15,617 nucleotides of DNA from a virus: the UHGV virus genome UHGV-2204636; one strand, 5' to 3'. The notes under the pieces are model-generated. The model did no database searches. It had not been told where the DNA came from and worked only from the letters and a program-made list of their open reading frames with translations. This document shows, piece by piece, positions 1,668-6,878 of the stretch (positions are counted from its first letter, which is position 1; every line of letters starts with the position of its first letter). The position numbers and the translations under genes were made by a program.

Positions 1668-2765
1668 ATGGCGTACTATAACATAGAGAAACGACTAAAA
1701 TCCGATGGCACACCACGCTATCGCTGTAATGTGATTATCAAAGAAAAAGGTGTTATCACTTACAGGGAAAGCAAAACATTCCCTAAACATGCTCATGCCA
1801 AAACATGGGGCACACAGAAAGTGATGGAATTAGATCTATATGGCATTCCATCATCAAATGCAGTTGACGGACTTACAGTCCGTGACTTACTACACAAATA
1901 TTTAAATGACCCAAATGCCGGAGGTAAAGCAGGCCGTACTAAAAGATATGTGCTGGAACTGCTTATGGATAGTGACATCTCCGCGATCAAACTATCTGAA
2001 CTGACAGAAAATGACGTAATTGAACATTGCAGGCTAAGAAACAACGCTGGTGCAGGTCCTGCAACAGTCAGCCACGATGTTAGTTATCTTGGCAGTGTTC
2101 TGGATGCGGCCAAACCTGTATACGGAATTAATTACACATCAAACCCGGCGAAAAGCGCTCGCCCATATCTACTTAAACTTGGTTTGATTGGTAAATCAAA
2201 CCGTCGTAATCGTAGACCAGCATCTGATGAACTGGACATGCTCATTGCAGGCCTTCAACAACGATCTACTCATAAATGCTCAAAAATTCCGTTCGTTGAT
2301 ATCCTCAAATTTTCTGTATGGTCCTGTATGCGAATCGGAGAAGTATGCCGGTTACGATGGGAAGATCTCGACCAGGAACAAAAATCTATACTCGTAAGAG
2401 ACAGGAAAGATCCACGCAAAAAGGAAGGTAACCACATGAAAGTAGCCTTGCTTGGGGAAGCCTGGGATATCGTCCAACGACAGCCCCAAAAATCGGAATT
2501 CATTTTTCCATATAACAGCACTTCTGTTACTGCGGGATTTCAGAGAGTAAGAAGCAAATTAGGTATTAAGGATCTGCGATACCATGATTTGCGTAGAGAA
2601 GGGGCAAGTCGCTTATTTGAGGCTGGTTTTAGTATTGAGGAAGTCGCCCAAGTTACAGGGCATCGTTCATTAAACGTGCTATGGCAGGTATATACCGAAC
2701 TGTATCCGAAATCTTTACATAATCGTTTTGAAGAGCTCCAAAGGAGCAGAAATAAGACCTCTTGA
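1668..2765 (+). CDS. int: Tyrosine recombinase / phage integrase, in the position of a dusA-associated integrase
   Basis: 365-aa ORF with a GAGG SD; C-terminal catalytic signature (...RYHDLRREGASR... GHRSLNVLWQVY) typical of tyrosine integrases; divergent from and adjacent to the 5' end of dusA. Confidence 0.9.
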   Translation: MAYYNIEKRLKSDGTPRYRCNVIIKEKGVITYRESKTFPKHAHAKTWGTQKVMELDLYGIPSSNAVDGLTVRDLLHKYLNDPNAGGKAGRTKRYVLELLMDSDISAIKLSELTENDVIEHCRLRNNAGAGPATVSHDVSYLGSVLDAAKPVYGINYTSNPAKSARPYLLKLGLIGKSNRRNRRPASDELDMLIAGLQQRSTHKCSKIPFVDILKFSVWSCMRIGEVCRLRWEDLDQEQKSILVRDRKDPRKKEGNHMKVALLGEAWDIVQRQPQKSEFIFPYNSTSVTAGFQRVRSKLGIKDLRYHDLRREGASRLFEAGFSIEEVAQVTGHRSLNVLWQVYTELYPKSLHNRFEELQRSRNKTS

Positions 2766-2811
2766 CACTGTTTATCCATACAGTTAAAAATAATGCTGTA
2801 TACAAACACAG
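2762..2811 (+). promoter_or_regulatory. sigma70-type promoter (TTGACA -35, TAAAAA -10 at 17 bp) with a LexA SOS box CTGTATACAAACACAG
   Basis: Perfect -35 hexamer at 2762-2767 overlapping the int stop; CTGT-N8-ACAG with AT-rich spacer at 2796-2811, between the -10 and the RBS (GGAGGG) of the dinI-like gene. Confidence 0.6.
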
Positions 2812-2826
2812 TATGGAGGGACTTTT

Positions 2827-3075
2827 ATGCGTATTGAAATCTGCATAGCCAAAGAAAAAATGACTAAAATGCCAACCGGTGCTGTGGATGCGTTAAAGGA
2901 AGAATTAACCCGACGCATCAGTAAGCGTTATGACGATGTTGAGGTGTTAGTAAAAGCCACCAGCAATGATGGCCTTTCTGTTACACGCACCGCAGATAAG
3001 GATTCTGCAAAAACTTTTGTTCAGGAGACTCTGAAAGATACCTGGGAATCTGCTGACGAGTGGTTTGTTCACTAA
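2827..3075 (+). CDS. DinI-family damage-inducible protein (prophage DinI-like)
   Basis: 82-aa product [11 protein letters not shown]...[16 protein letters not shown] aligns by eye with E. coli DinI (MRIEVTIAK...ETWESADDWFV); strong SD; preceded by a LexA box. Confidence 0.85.
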
Positions 3076-3328
3076 TAAACACGTAAAATCTGTAACGGCT
3101 GGAAATCATTCAATACTCGCACTATCGAAAGTTCACCAGCCAACCGCAGCGCGTTCTTGCATACGACGTGGCTGCGGTCTCAACTCCGTCCCCCACCAAT
3201 CATGATTGGGCAGTACCAGTACAGCACTAGTAAAAACTGGAAATAAGCAGTCTCAGCAAAATACCGGCCAGACGGTGAGAAGACAAAAAAGATACGCAAA
3301 GTAGCCGCGGCCCTTAGTGACATGAAAT

Positions 3329-3349
3329 CCCGCTATACGGGCTTTTTTG
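3329..3349 (+). terminator. Weak terminator-like hairpin (CCCG-ctata-CGGG) followed by CTTTTTTGT
   Basis: Short 4-bp GC stem with a T6 run, inside the 350-bp non-coding gap downstream of the dinI-like gene. Confidence 0.3.
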
Positions 3350-3423
3350 TATCTGCACACGATTGATTATTAGGTCCGTATAGCTAATAGTGGTCTTAAC
3401 CTACATATAGAATCAGAGACTTT

Positions 3424-4119
3424 ATGAAAAAGGAAATACTCAAGGCTCTTTGCCCTACATGCGGTGGGTTACGTAACTGCACTGTGCATGGGAAGCTAAC
3501 CACTAGCTGGGAGGATTCCCAATATCCAGTTTATGGGTACCATTACCATCACCTACTCCAATGCAATGGCTGTGATACTGTCTTCTATCACCACAACGAA
3601 CACTTCAGTGAGCATACTACCCACGAATATCGTGATGGTGAATTTGTAGAAACGCCTATAGATATGATCACTACCTATCCTGCCGCTGAAACATTTCAAG
3701 CTCCGATATGGTTATCCAAGCTTGAATCAGTTGATCGTCAGCTCTTTCAAATATTTAATGAAATGTATTCTTCATATACTTCTGACCATTTCATTCTTTC
3801 GTCCATCGGTTTACGGACGATTTTTGATCGAACTGCTGAACTGTTACAAATTCACCCCGGTTTGCCGCTTGGTGAAAAAGTTGAAAAATTAAAACAAGAT
3901 GGAGTCATAGGCGACACTGAGGCATGCGTTATATCTTCAGTAATTGATGCAGGAAACGCCGCCGCACATCGCAGTTGGAGCCCGAATAAAAGTGAGTTCG
4001 AACAAATGCTAGAAGCTATAGAAAGTTTTGTCCAAAGAACTATCTTGGGCAAAAAATCACTTGAACATATAACCAAACAACTCCCACCTCGGGTTACAAG
4101 ACCTAAAAATAGTGCATAA
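3424..4119 (+). CDS. Hypothetical protein: N-terminal 4-Cys zinc ribbon (CPTC...CNGC) plus C-terminal DUF4145/HEPN-like helical domain; candidate defence or abortive-infection cargo gene
   Basis: 231-aa ORF, visibly AT-richer than the flanking tail genes; CxxC-N32-CxxC plus a His-rich stretch at the N-terminus; C-terminal LGEKVEKLKQDGVI...IDAGNAAAHRS resembles the conserved core of DUF4145 as I recall it (unverified). Confidence 0.75.
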   Translation: MKKEILKALCPTCGGLRNCTVHGKLTTSWEDSQYPVYGYHYHHLLQCNGCDTVFYHHNEHFSEHTTHEYRDGEFVETPIDMITTYPAAETFQAPIWLSKLESVDRQLFQIFNEMYSSYTSDHFILSSIGLRTIFDRTAELLQIHPGLPLGEKVEKLKQDGVIGDTEACVISSVIDAGNAAAHRSWSPNKSEFEQMLEAIESFVQRTILGKKSLEHITKQLPPRVTRPKNSA

Positions 4120-4145
4120 TCCGCGATCATCAATGTGGCGTAAGG

Positions 4146-4702
4146 CTATGGTTTACTTGCTACAGGGAATTTTTTATACACCGTTGAAATACCCAGATCA
4201 TAAATCAGTGCGACTTGCTGCTGATATATTCCCGATTCAATCAACCTGCCAGCCTGCCCCCATTGTTCTACTGTCAGCTTTGGCTTTCGCCCACCGTTCC
4301 TCCCTTCTTGTCGTGCTGCGGCAAAGCCGCCCTAGTACGTTCGACAATAAACTCTCGCTCCATTTCAGCCAGGGCACCCATCACATGAAAGAAAAAGCGC
4401 CCCATTGGTGTGCTGGTATCAATAGCATCCGTCAGGCTGCGAAAATTAACGCCACGTTCGCGCAACTCTTCCACCAGCACGACAAGATGCCGCATACTGC
4501 GCCCCAGTCGGTCCAGTTTCCAGACCACCAGCGTGTCACCTGCCGATAATGTCCTGAGCAGCTTTTTCAGTCCTGGTCTGTCGGACTTTGTACCGCTTAT
4601 CTTGTCTTCAAAAATCAGCTCACATCCTGCACAGTTCAACGCATTACGTTGTAGATCGGTGTTCTGGTCATTTGTTGATACGCGAACATAGCCAATAAGC
4701 AT
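4146..4702 (-). pseudogene. pin: Serine recombinase / DNA invertase of the Pin/Gin/Hin/Cin family, interrupted by a 1-nt frameshift near 4320-4323
   Basis: Frame A (4322-4702) encodes MLIGYVRVSTNDQNTDLQ...GRFFFHVMGALAEMEREFIVERTRAAL (catalytic domain, Ser in VRVSTNDQ). Frame C (4146-4322) encodes AAARQEGRNGGRKPKLTVEQWGQAGRLIESGIYQQQVALIYDLGISTVYKKFPVASKP (HTH domain), matching e14 Pin. Total length 557 nt is not a multiple of 3. Confidence 0.7.
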
Positions 4703-4731: not shown

Positions 4732-5103
4732 ATGCCATTTGCGCGCTATTTCTGCATTTTCATAAACGTTGGTTTGGGAGAAGCGGCAAAACGGAATGTG
4801 GGAACAGGGAAAAATCAGATACCTGATATGTCAGCTTATTCATCAGGATCTGGCTGGCAAAAATTGCCTGATGGTTCAATTGAACAGTGGGGAAGAATTA
4901 ATTTCCCGTATAACGCCGCGGCGGTATCTACAAATGTGACTTTCACCATTCCTTTTACGCAGGAGCCAGACGTAGTGATTGTATATGACGGCGGTTTTGG
5001 TGGTGGGAATATGTGGGGCGCAACTAACTGGACGAAAACAGGTTTCGTTGCTCATTGTAACTATGGCTTTGAAGGTGGAGCCTTCTACGCGAAAGGGCGT
5101 TAA
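4732..5103 (+). CDS. Silent alternative tail-fibre C-terminal cassette (Sv'-like); the ATG at 4732 is probably fortuitous, the cassette is expressed only after inversion
   Basis: ORF shares the VGLGE junction with the expressed fibre gene at the crossover site, then diverges (AAKRNVGTGKNQ...); no independent N-terminal fibre domain. Confidence 0.55.
   Translation: MPFARYFCIFINVGLGEAAKRNVGTGKNQIPDMSAYSSGSGWQKLPDGSIEQWGRINFPYNAAAVSTNVTFTIPFTQEPDVVIVYDGGFGGGNMWGATNWTKTGFVAHCNYGFEGGAFYAKGR
4757..4782. other. Invertase crossover site (gix/pix-like 26-bp imperfect palindrome), invertase-proximal copy
   Basis: TTTTCATAAACG-TT-GGTTTGGGAGAA; its reverse complement shares TTCTCCCAAACCAA with the site at 6573-6598; resembles hix/gix half-sites. 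Confidence 0.55.
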
Positions 5104-5105
5104 TT

Positions 5106-5546
5106 ATGAAATATTTGTATGTTGATAATCTGGCGTACCCTTATGCCCTCCAGTCTGTTTACGCTGCAAAAGGCCAATGGCCCGAAGGTAAAGGCGTGGA
5201 TATAGACGAAGCTATTTTCAGGGAATATTTCCATGATACGCCGCCTGACGGTAAGTACAGAATTACCGGAGACGATGGAATGCCAGCATGGGCAGATGTT
5301 CCACCGCCAACACGTGAAGAACAAATTGCATCAGCCGAAACTAAAAAGCAGCAATTGATTAATCAGGCCAACGATTATATGAACAGTAGACAATGGGCTG
5401 GTAAAGCGGCTATTGGTCGTCTGAAAGGTGAGGAACTGGCGCAATATAATTTGTGGCTGGATTATCTGGACGCACTGGAGCTGGTCGATACTTCCAGTGC
5501 ACCAGATATTGAATGGCCTACTCCTCCGGCAGTTCAGGCCAGATGA
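5106..5546 (+). CDS. Tail fibre assembly protein (Tfa / Mu U'-like), partner of the silent cassette
   Basis: 146-aa product with the conserved Tfa C-terminal motif (...NLWLDYLDALELVDTSSAPDIEWPTPP); immediately follows the cassette ORF. Confidence 0.85.
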   Translation: MKYLYVDNLAYPYALQSVYAAKGQWPEGKGVDIDEAIFREYFHDTPPDGKYRITGDDGMPAWADVPPPTREEQIASAETKKQQLINQANDYMNSRQWAGKAAIGRLKGEELAQYNLWLDYLDALELVDTSSAPDIEWPTPPAVQAR

Positions 5547-6120
5547 CATCCGGCGCGGTGCTGGTATCTGTTGCCGTCACCGCGTCAATGTAATCCAGCA
5601 CAGCGTTAAGTCGGGTTGTTTCTGCCTGCGTCAACTTCCGTCCGGCCTGTAATTTCAGCTGAATCAGACTAATGGAAGCCATTGCTGCATCAATCAGTGA
5701 CTGGCGCTGTGCTTCTGCTGCGTCTACTGCGGCACTATGCTGTGCCTCAGTATCCGTCACCCATTTCTCACCATCCCATTTATCGTATGGCGTTAACGGG
5801 GCGATAGTGGTTGTATTTTCGGGGTAATCACCCAGAGCTGTGATTTCTTTGGCGTCTCCCGTTTCGGTGTTATAGACGATTTCACCGCGATGGTCTGGCA
5901 CATATTCCCATGAGTTTAAATCTGCCGAACGGCAGATTGCATAACCAGCCTTATGTATACCAGGTTCATCCAGACAGGAATATGCCGGGATACCAACACC
6001 AACGGCAAGATATTCATTTGAAGTGGAAATATATTCCCGAGTTTCACCATCATAGCTATAGACGGTAATATCCCCCGCCTTCGTGGCAATAAGCTCGCTA
6101 TTTAATACAGCGTTATCCAT
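5518..6120 (-). CDS. Tail fibre assembly protein (Tfa / Mu U-like), partner of the expressed fibre
   Basis: 200-aa product with C-terminal ...LNAVLDYIDAVTATDTSTAPDVIWPELPEE motif; convergent with and overlapping the U'-like gene by 29 nt. Confidence 0.85.
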   Translation of the reverse strand: MDNAVLNSELIATKAGDITVYSYDGETREYISTSNEYLAVGVGIPAYSCLDEPGIHKAGYAICRSADLNSWEYVPDHRGEIVYNTETGDAKEITALGDYPENTTTIAPLTPYDKWDGEKWVTDTEAQHSAAVDAAEAQRQSLIDAAMASISLIQLKLQAGRKLTQAETTRLNAVLDYIDAVTATDTSTAPDVIWPELPEE

Positions 6121-6878
6121 TATTCAGCCCTCACGATAAAGTTAAATGCAATATTTCGCGCACGTGTTTCCGTTGATGTTCTGGCAACAAGTGATGCATC
6201 AAAATAATAATTCGCCTGTTTATATGTACCACCTATCGCAATTGGTGTGAGATTTGGTTGCACTATTGAAGAGGTAAATGCGCCGAAAGTATTATTATTT
6301 GTCCCCGTGGTCATATCAAAAAAGCTACCTGTAATATTTTGCAGCGTATCGCTCTGAGCACTCAATAACGCTCGCCCACTGTCCACTCCACGCCCATCAT
6401 CCCAGCCACGAATAAACTCACCCCGCAGATCTGGCAGCACAAGACCGGGGTAAACCAGTGCCAGCTTCGGATAATTTTTAGCTGCAAATGGAGCGCCGTT
6501 ACATTTCAGCCATCCTGTTGGTGGAGTGGCTAAAGGCCACGGAACAGGCACACCAACGGGTAATGCCGAACCTTCTCCCAAACCAAGATTTCCGAGAGCC
6601 GTTTTCACGGTGCCATCCGATTTGATATCGCCAAACGGATTTGAGCGACTCAGTAACAGCGCGTTTAGTGCTGTTAATAACTGGTTTTTTTTAGAAGGAT
6701 CAACATTAATACCGGCAGCGTTCAGGACAGTAATAAGCTCCGACTGCGCATCTCTGACAGCCCCCTGCACGTTATTCAGATGCTCAGCATCAACAATGGT
6801 CCCCAGCTCACCTGTGAGCGGATTACCATCATGGAAAAGATTATCCGGCGTCTGCACCGGTGGCATTAAGGGCCGCAT
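6120..6878 (-). CDS. Tail fibre protein (constant N-terminus about 6586-6878 plus currently expressed variable C-terminus 6120-6585)
   Basis: 252-aa ORF; start overlaps the stop of the upstream gene (TAATG); contains the crossover site at the GLGE codons. Confidence 0.85.
6573..6598. other. Invertase crossover site (26-bp imperfect palindrome) inside the tail fibre gene
   Basis: TTCTCCCAAACC-AA-GATTTCCGAGAG; inverted relative to the site at 4757-4782. Confidence 0.55.

Follow-up and report, generated by a model that had tools for sequence, protein, structure and literature searches.

The gene at positions 3424–4119 of the 15,617-nucleotide stretch of DNA analysed here (the window) encodes a 231-residue protein in which an N-terminal Cys4 zinc-binding domain is joined to a C-terminal DUF4145 domain of the HEPN type. 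It is optional cargo of prophages integrated at dusA, and the closest known system to its product is RAZR (ring-activated zinc-finger RNase, formerly PD-T7-4), a validated abortive-infection protein from E. coli. We propose, with modest confidence and on the analysis described below, that the protein acts alone in anti-phage defence of the abortive-infection type, probably by cleaving RNA with a HEPN active site that has been rewired relative to that of RAZR.

The reading frame starts with an ATG and gives 231 amino acids in both the list of open reading frames and the translation; its product is annotated in RefSeq as WP_001514810.1, 'DUF4145 domain-containing protein'. A first, sequence-only reading of this DNA had picked out the frame as visibly richer in A and T than the tail module, and the base composition agrees, with a GC content of 0.41–0.42 over the gene and 0.50–0.57 over the tail module. 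Among 5,426 complete E. coli genomes, 34 (0.6%) carry a copy, the copies being at least 99.7% identical. Comparison with four orthologues gave a pN of ∼0.2 and a pS of ∼0.8 (synonymous sites are saturated between the orthologues, and pN/pS is given in place of per-domain dN/dS), indicating that the frame encodes a protein under purifying selection.

PHROG 1305 matches the protein at 5e-43 and carries the label 'DNA binding protein', which was set aside as evidence since the annotation itself is untested. Nothing useful was obtained from the NCBIfam models, no homologue was present in 50,697 deposited phage genomes even at E <= 10 and a literature search found no mention of WP_001514810. The features of the gene are as follows.

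3424..4119, + strand: zinc-ribbon plus DUF4145/HEPN gene, including the stop codon (open-reading-frame list, translation, RefSeq)
3424..3678, + strand: N-terminal zinc-binding domain, residues 1–85, the presumed sensor (cysteine conservation, AF2 domain model)
3451–3453, 3460–3462, 3562–3564 and 3571–3573, + strand: codons of the Cys4 set C10, C13, C47 and C50
3679..3711, + strand: interdomain linker, residues 86–96 (near-invariant P86, P94 and W96; no secondary structure in the AF2 model)
3712..4047, + strand: HEPN (DUF4145) domain, residues 97–208
3814..3828, + strand: helix-2 motif R131-T-I-F-D135 (conservation in 166 sequences; R131 aligns with RAZR R105)
3943..3981, + strand: I174-D-A-G-N-A-A-A-H182-R183-S-W185-S, the variant active-site motif, where HEPN helix 3 ends
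3943–3945, + strand: codon of Ile174, in the place of RAZR Arg146
3967–3969, + strand: codon of His182, the equivalent of RAZR His154

Domain structure and family conservation

The zinc domain was modelled by AF2 as four long β-strands (residues 18–30, 37–47, 53–70 and 73–85), with a pLDDT of 90 for this domain modelled alone and 83 for the full-length protein. The sequence-only reading had noted a four-cysteine ribbon and a His-rich patch in this part of the protein. The ribbon is upheld by the family alignment, in which C10, C13, C47 and C50 are conserved in 92–98% of 166 sequences; the His-rich patch (residues 40–67), together with C19, is conserved only within the enterobacterial subclade. 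A Foldseek search of the PDB with the zinc-domain model gave nothing better than E = 0.09 and hence no structural match to any entry, in a library that may lack the chains of the RAZR structure (PDB code 9Y9C).

The C-terminal domain is a HEPN-type four-helix up–down bundle in which helices 2 and 3 are separated by an insert, the helices of the AF2 model spanning residues 105–119, 123–140, 149–158, 164–181 and 189–208. The resemblance of this region to DUF4145, previously suggested by eye, was confirmed by a profile comparison in which Pfam DUF4145 (PF13643; HEPN/KNTase_C clan) aligns with residues 115–199 over profile positions 4–87 of 88 with a score of 39 bits (E = 8.8e-10), above the cut-off of 23.1. 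The histidine expected at the end of helix 3 is present as H182, which directly follows helix 164–181. The acidic residue of helix 2, a described feature of HEPN domains (PMC3710099), is present as D135 in helix 123–140, one turn from the invariant R131.

When 1.84 billion representative proteins were searched with a profile, 2,696 clusters reached E <= 1e-3 and 289 of them E <= 1e-30, and nearly all of the best 150 matches align end to end. Among the 166 aligned sequences, R131 is found in every one, position 135 is Asp in 160 and Glu in six, H182 and W185 are invariant (100%), and K152 and R183 are conserved in 99% and 98% (162 sequences), respectively. Further invariant or near-invariant residues are G49, P86, P94, W96, Y115, T132, A176, G177, A179–A181, P187, E200 and P221, and D175 is retained at the position described as the 'polar residue after R'. 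Position 174 is occupied by Thr (57 sequences), Val (54), Ile (45) or Ala (8) and by Arg or Lys in none of the 166; neither residue occurs anywhere within positions 172–182 of these sequences, and the canonical HEPN arginine is thus absent. The Rx4-6H motif of HEPN domains takes the form Rx7H in DUF4145 and RAZR. For comparison, the motif is kept in only ∼80% of DUF4145 proteins (PMC3710099). Variation within the protein is greatest in the zinc domain, with a mean pairwise identity of 29% versus 41% for the HEPN domain.

The family also includes longer relatives, and all ten of those tested match DUF4145. Their N-terminal extensions gave only weak extra zinc-ribbon matches (Lar-like), and one of them carries a domain common to the N-termini of DRT reverse-transcriptase models.

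Comparison with RAZR and other HEPN proteins

RAZR is a single protein from E. coli UMB1727 (PDB code 9Y9C; PMC13017515; PMC9519451) in which a Cys4 zinc-finger domain at the N-terminus is followed by a DUF4145 HEPN domain at the C-terminus (PMC13017515). As a validated abortive-infection system, it assembles into a 24-mer around phage rings formed by the portal or Gp77 and then cleaves ssRNA non-specifically; the R146A and H154A substitutions each abolish defence, and the zinc domain sets the phage specificity (PMC13017515). The protein described here resembles RAZR in being the product of a single gene of ∼220–230 residues, with a Cys4 zinc domain at the N-terminus that starts with CPxC, a linker rich in proline, a DUF4145 HEPN domain towards the C-terminus and a conserved proline in the C-terminal tail. 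In each of them, sequence varies most within the zinc domain, and both are found beside integrases on mobile elements.

The RAZR sequence (9y9c_OA, residues 97–168) was retrieved only by means of a hand-written DUF4145-like consensus, a query that served for retrieval alone. Since the resulting 72-residue query returned only fragments of at most 125 residues, an N-terminal (P0208) and a C-terminal (P0186) fragment were used instead, and the published RAZR landmarks V21, AGN68-70, Q140, R146, H154, D179, D180 and R184 were confirmed on the recovered sequences. Alignment of the HEPN halves with the RAZR-family fragments by hhalign gave an E of 0.0026 over 111 collinear columns, and alignment of the zinc domain with the RAZR-family N-terminus gave a P of 0.0013 over 43 columns, with both cysteine pairs (CPxC...CxxC) in register. 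The hhalign probabilities are low (12–19%) although the P-values are ∼0.002; the homology to RAZR is therefore remote, yet consistent across both halves of the protein.

The PADLOC model for PD-T7-4 (PDLC04109) does not match the protein at E <= 1; of 142 relatives, it matches just four, the best at E = 0.021, and a sequence search of the PDB with the protein and two family profiles gave no meaningful match. Judged from these comparisons, the protein is not a member of the RAZR family and belongs to a separate large family with the same layout. The sequence-only reading had found no assignable function for it; a functional analogue is now available in RAZR (PMC13017515).

The two proteins differ in the active site, in the oligomerization residues and in the zinc domain. 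With the motif register set by hhalign and the PDB 9y9c_OA sequence, H182, G177-N178 and R131 align with H154, G149-N150 and R105 of RAZR. The catalytic R146, which is invariant in the RAZR-family alignment, is replaced by I174, and by Ile, Val, Thr or Ala across the family, so that only the histidine is kept of a catalytic pair (R146 and H154) of which both members are needed for defence in RAZR. The invariant H-P-G of RAZR becomes H-R-G/S-W-x-P. Residues D179, D180 and R184, which form the dimer–dimer salt bridge of RAZR and are needed for its higher-order oligomers (PMC13017515), correspond to Q204, R205 and G209 in a region where the alignment is of low confidence. The zinc domain, with its four long strands, is ∼20 residues longer than that of RAZR, which is a short, RPB9-like ribbon.

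These substitutions bear directly on the proposal, made in the sequence-only reading, that the protein targets nucleic acid. As no member of the family has the canonical HEPN arginine, this part of the proposal is less secure, and RNase activity is not assured, since R146A abolishes RAZR defence and the equivalent position is never Arg or Lys in the 166 sequences. The strong conservation of polar residues (R131, D135 at 96%, K152, H182, R183 and W185) nevertheless speaks for an active site and against decay of the domain. Other HEPN families have the histidine only, namely c2405/AbiTii-HEPN, in the DUF4145-like clade, and PaREP1/8; other conserved basic residues have been proposed as compensation in these, and HEPN inactivity is predicted only where conserved polar residues are wholly absent (PMC3710099; Anantharaman et al., 2013). 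The present protein is like them in having the histidine at the end of helix 3, no arginine of the Rx4-6H type and other conserved basic residues. It is unlike them in that the N-terminus of AbiTii is different and PaREP1/8 are archaeal stand-alone proteins, neither having a zinc ribbon or an H-R-x-W-x-P motif. By this polar-residue criterion, the HEPN domain looks active but rewired.

A mechanism can be outlined by analogy with RAZR. Carried as optional cargo in a Mu/P2-tailed prophage at dusA, at the end where the integrase lies, the gene would supply a self-contained anti-phage protein, expressed constitutively at a low level from a weak promoter of its own. The variable N-terminal Cys4 zinc domain would recognize a protein, or an assembly of proteins, from a superinfecting phage, and binding would reposition HEPN domains that are paired across a dimer interface. 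The HEPN domains would then cleave RNA and shut down translation, so that the infected cell is lost and the phage is stopped. The missing guanidinium group may be supplied by R183, immediately after the histidine, by R131 of helix 2 or by both.

The family-wide absence of the arginine that is essential in RAZR also fits a defence or exclusion factor with a non-catalytic HEPN domain, which would bind RNA or the ribosome or would serve in scaffolding or oligomerization. Precedents for such domains are MtlR and the C-terminal domains of nucleotidyltransferases (PMC3710099), and the defence context of the gene suits this explanation equally well. We nevertheless consider it rather unlikely, given that an invariant, solvent-facing H182 at the canonical position, beside R183, W185 and D175, is a pattern more typical of a catalytic centre and that loss of activity is predicted only for domains without any conserved polar residues (PMC3710099).

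Defence by a zinc-finger HEPN protein has a precedent other than RAZR. DS-38 (HEP2, WP_001313577.1) is a validated single-protein zinc finger plus HEPN defence system of E. coli that came from DefensePredictor, and only its HEPN domain superposes on PD-T7-4, its zinc domain being distinct (PMC13092281; bioRxiv 10.1101/2025.01.08.631726). The present protein stands in a similar relation to RAZR. Identity with DS-38 itself was rejected, as DS-38 is set apart by its length (366 residues) and its accession. HepT/MNT and other minimal HEPN toxins (PDB codes 5yep, 7ae8 and 2hsb) are two-gene toxin–antitoxin pairs with a canonical Rx4H, whereas the zinc-ribbon/HEPN gene has neither a partner nor a form that is free of the zinc domain. 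A search for a toxin–antitoxin partner found no neighbouring open reading frame conserved across loci and no tandem-repeat antitoxin RNA.

A link between DUF4145 proteins and defence or the exclusion of plasmids has been drawn in three further cases: BxaP (PMC10799925), Ishtar (bioRxiv 10.64898/2026.07.06.735840) and a gene at the end of an M. abscessus PICI (PMC10465359). Like the present protein, all three contain a DUF4145 HEPN domain, and each has been implicated in defence; the PICI gene, as the zinc-ribbon/HEPN gene does, lies at the very edge of a mobile element (PMC10465359). They differ in domain order and in partner domains, and none has an N-terminal Cys4 ribbon. As DUF4145 HEPN proteins are reported to block RP4 conjugation (bioRxiv 10.64898/2026.07.06.735840), the protein could conceivably act against other mobile elements, as an anti-plasmid factor like Ishtar, or in some other prophage conflict such as toxin-like stabilization; a position beside the integrase and att site is typical of generic morons (gtr, umuDC, NleG). 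A role of this kind seems improbable. In Ishtar, the HEPN domain is N-terminal and the C-terminal domain is of another kind, with no N-terminal zinc ribbon; the zinc-ribbon/HEPN gene has neither a repeat RNA nor an antitoxin-like partner beside it, and the closest architecture, that of RAZR, is anti-phage.

The dusA locus and its cargo slot

The prophage that carries the zinc-ribbon/HEPN gene is integrated at dusA in the E. coli chromosome. The order of genes is dusA (− strand), a tyrosine integrase, a DinI-like gene, the zinc-ribbon/HEPN gene and a Pin/Gin-type invertase on the opposite strand, beyond which lie tail-fibre genes and then baseplate genes of the Mu/P2 type. The features that flank the gene in the window are the following.

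2827–3075: DinI-family gene, the upstream flank of the zinc-ribbon/HEPN gene (Pfam E = 1.1e-19)
3076..3348, + strand: shared non-coding leader, 3′ of dinI and outside the cargo, ending with a hairpin and T-run (3329–3348)
3349..3423, + strand: cargo-specific 5′ region, with a presumed weak promoter of its own and a presumed ribosome-binding region
4146..4702, − strand: Pin/Gin-type invertase, frameshifted in the window and convergent with the zinc-ribbon/HEPN gene (Pfam Resolvase E = 6.9e-49)

The placement of the gene between an SOS-controlled dinI-like gene and an invertase, as first read, holds, both neighbours having Pfam matches and the dinI-like gene having two LexA-box matches (CTGT-N8-ACAG) that can be read from the sequence at 2768–2783 and 2796–2811. 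RefSeq flags the invertase as 'frameshifted'. The frameshift is also present in several strains, and in others, e.g. SX12, the invertase is intact.

The DNA 5′ of the gene had been described as 350 bp of structured non-coding sequence. It is non-coding over 348 bp (3076–3423), where the longest open reading frame is at most 47 residues, but the structure did not hold up: folding is no better than chance, with a z-score of −0.88 and 15 of 100 shuffles folding as well or better. No Rfam family, no tandem or direct repeats and no conservation between orthologous loci were found in this upstream DNA, and a regulatory or antitoxin RNA 5′ of the gene was rejected on these grounds. No tRNA genes were called near the orthologues.

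The first ∼100 nt of the leader, 3′ of dinI, are present in 2,927 of the 5,426 E. coli genomes. In strain 190, ∼270 nt of the leader also lie 5′ of a type II R-M pair, and the similarity ends at ∼3348, just past the hairpin; this abrupt stop points to a cargo-specific segment of ∼3349–4145. A σ70 scan 5′ of position 3424 gave no match above the threshold. Candidate promoter hexamers, TTGATT (3363–3368) and TAATAG (3385–3390) separated by a 16-nt spacer, match at eight of 12 positions and fall below that threshold.

An integrase and dinI backbone is present at dusA in 711 of the 5,426 E. coli genomes, as against 34 with the zinc-ribbon/HEPN gene, and what lies 3′ of dinI varies. The slot is empty in the dusA prophages of D53-1 and PMV-1, contains three DUF1076 (NleG-like) genes in O157:H7 and contains a SLATT and reverse-transcriptase pair in PK8217. 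In another strain, the ∼100-nt leader element is located between an Avs2 gene and pinE. The gene is therefore optional cargo of dusA prophages, and the earlier suggestion of a variable cargo locus is borne out by this comparison.

In Citrobacter, Enterobacter and Atlantibacter, orthologues (63–84% identity) occupy the outermost position in prophages whose tails are of the P2, lambdoid or P22 type, and have int, umuDC, dinI and gtr genes as neighbours. With homologues in such different prophages and a copy in only 34 of 5,426 E. coli genomes, a fixed synteny that would go with a structural or lysogeny role, named at the outset as the observation that would speak against cargo, is not seen. Distant relatives adjoin an AbiTii gene, or Mrr and a second DUF4145 gene, and one adjoins a Gabija-like pair of an AAA_15/21 ATPase and UvrD, assigned through Pfam. 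The computational checks proposed for the reading of the gene as a putative single-gene defence moron thus support it.

The locus also allows two further explanations to be judged. In E. coli, the gene always lies beside the Pin-type invertase of the same prophage, as might be expected if it served in prophage housekeeping, through control of the adjacent invertase and tail-fibre switch or in lysogeny; this is very improbable, as related dusA prophages do without the gene (711 backbones and 34 copies), orthologues reside in prophages that have no invertase at all and the adjacent invertase is a pseudogene in the window. Least probable of all is a decaying or functionless hitchhiker, to which the rarity (0.6%) and near-clonality of the gene in E. 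coli and its pseudogene neighbour could be attributed, but which is at odds with a very large family of full-length relatives with invariant motifs and with strong purifying selection.

Implications for HEPN-based defence

RAZR has made it clear that the shape of ring-like phage assemblies can be sensed by a small zinc-finger HEPN protein (PMC13017515). RAZR-like zinc-finger HEPN abortive-infection proteins are thus already known; what is new here is a separate large family with an apparently different zinc domain and no arginine of the RAZR type. It is much larger than the RAZR family, has the same layout and is not flagged by the models used to find defence systems (PADLOC 2.0).

The locus further defines a concrete cargo slot, in the order dusA–int–dinI–leader–[cargo]–invertase/tail fibre. 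As its contents vary among E. coli strains, with the zinc-ribbon/HEPN gene, a SLATT and reverse-transcriptase pair or NleG-like genes in the slot and Avs2 at the leader element, the slot should be useful for mining defence genes.

With a family that lacks the arginine required by RAZR, nature provides a means to ask how the active site of a HEPN domain can be reconstructed, or which role such a domain can fulfil without this arginine. More tentatively, and as a possibility that we hold to be doubtful in its full extent, the family may be a separate, large sister of RAZR in which the HEPN site has been rebuilt around H-R-x-W-x-P, the zinc domain is a new and larger β-sheet fold and the assemblies sensed are phage structures other than the portal and Gp77 rings. 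If so, it would represent either HEPN nucleases with a catalytic arrangement not described before or an effector that does not cut nucleic acid, and would constitute a second, mechanistically distinct family of assembly-activated immune proteins, widespread at the ends of prophages.

Probable SOS control of the dinI-like gene

The gene that encodes the zinc-ribbon/DUF4145 protein (WP_001514810.1) lies downstream of a dinI-like gene, which is directly preceded by two sequences matching the LexA box, CTGT-N8-ACAG.

Window 2768–2783: LexA-box match
Window 2796–2811: LexA-box match

A TTGACA/-10 promoter match is located upstream of the same gene (window 2762–2811) and, because both LexA-box matches overlap it, the dinI-like gene is, as judged from these motifs, very probably under SOS control. 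A hairpin with a T-run (window 3329–3348) separates the dinI-like gene from the DUF4145 gene.

Invertase and tail-fibre genes

The other side of the DUF4145 gene is occupied by an invertase and tail-fibre genes.

Window 4146–4702, minus strand: Pin/Gin-type invertase, adjoining the DUF4145 gene
Window 4732–5103 (plus), 5106–5546 (plus) and 5518–6120 (minus): tail-fibre C-terminal and tail-fibre-assembly genes, beside the invertase

The opposed tail-fibre genes next to the invertase (window 4732–6120) are arranged as in an invertible host-range cassette of the G-segment type. In the window and in several strains the invertase carries a frameshift; strain SX12 has an intact version of 185 aa. 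In the strain of the window, tail-fibre switching is probably locked. The SX12 record NZ_CP142787.1, deposited as 'plasmid pSX12-2' (55.6 kb), carries chromosomal alr-dnaB-qorA-pspG-dusA together with a prophage end. This record appears to be a piece of chromosome wrongly assigned to a plasmid, not a plasmid-borne copy of the DUF4145 gene.

Relatives and other DUF4145 loci

One relative in the family, P0122, possesses an additional N-terminal domain of ∼100 aa (residues 8–119). This region matches the N-termini of the PADLOC models for the defence-associated reverse transcriptases RT_UG29 and RTasDnaG-like (E ∼1e-13), a similarity that points to a putative adaptor domain common to defence proteins. 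A Rahnella locus (L015) contains two distinct DUF4145 genes (1304–2050 and 6001–6764) separated by 4 kb. A gene for an Mrr-type nuclease lies between the two, and the locus resembles a small defence island.

The leader and variable cargo

The dinI-like gene is followed by a non-coding leader.

Window 3076–3348: non-coding leader of ∼270 nt, 3′ of the dinI-like gene

Its first ∼100 nt are found in ∼2900 of 5426 E. coli genomes, and in another strain this element, beside pinE, is adjoined by an Avs2 gene (locus L010, 1–4656). The entire leader also occurs 5′ of a type II restriction–modification pair in strain 190 (locus L008, 4001–4277), where the likeness to the window stops directly after the conserved hairpin and T-run. 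No Rfam family matched the leader (window 3076–3348). In some records, part of it is labelled by RefSeq as a 'capsid protein' pseudogene fragment. The leader may serve as a recombination landmark at which cargo is exchanged, or it may be a small transcript that lacks annotation.

The dusA-int-dinI slot itself holds three genes of the NleG-like effector type (DUF1076) in O157:H7 (locus L013, 5069–7066) and a SLATT and reverse-transcriptase pair in strain PK8217 (locus L014, 5130–7029). It is a variable cargo hotspot and merits mining.
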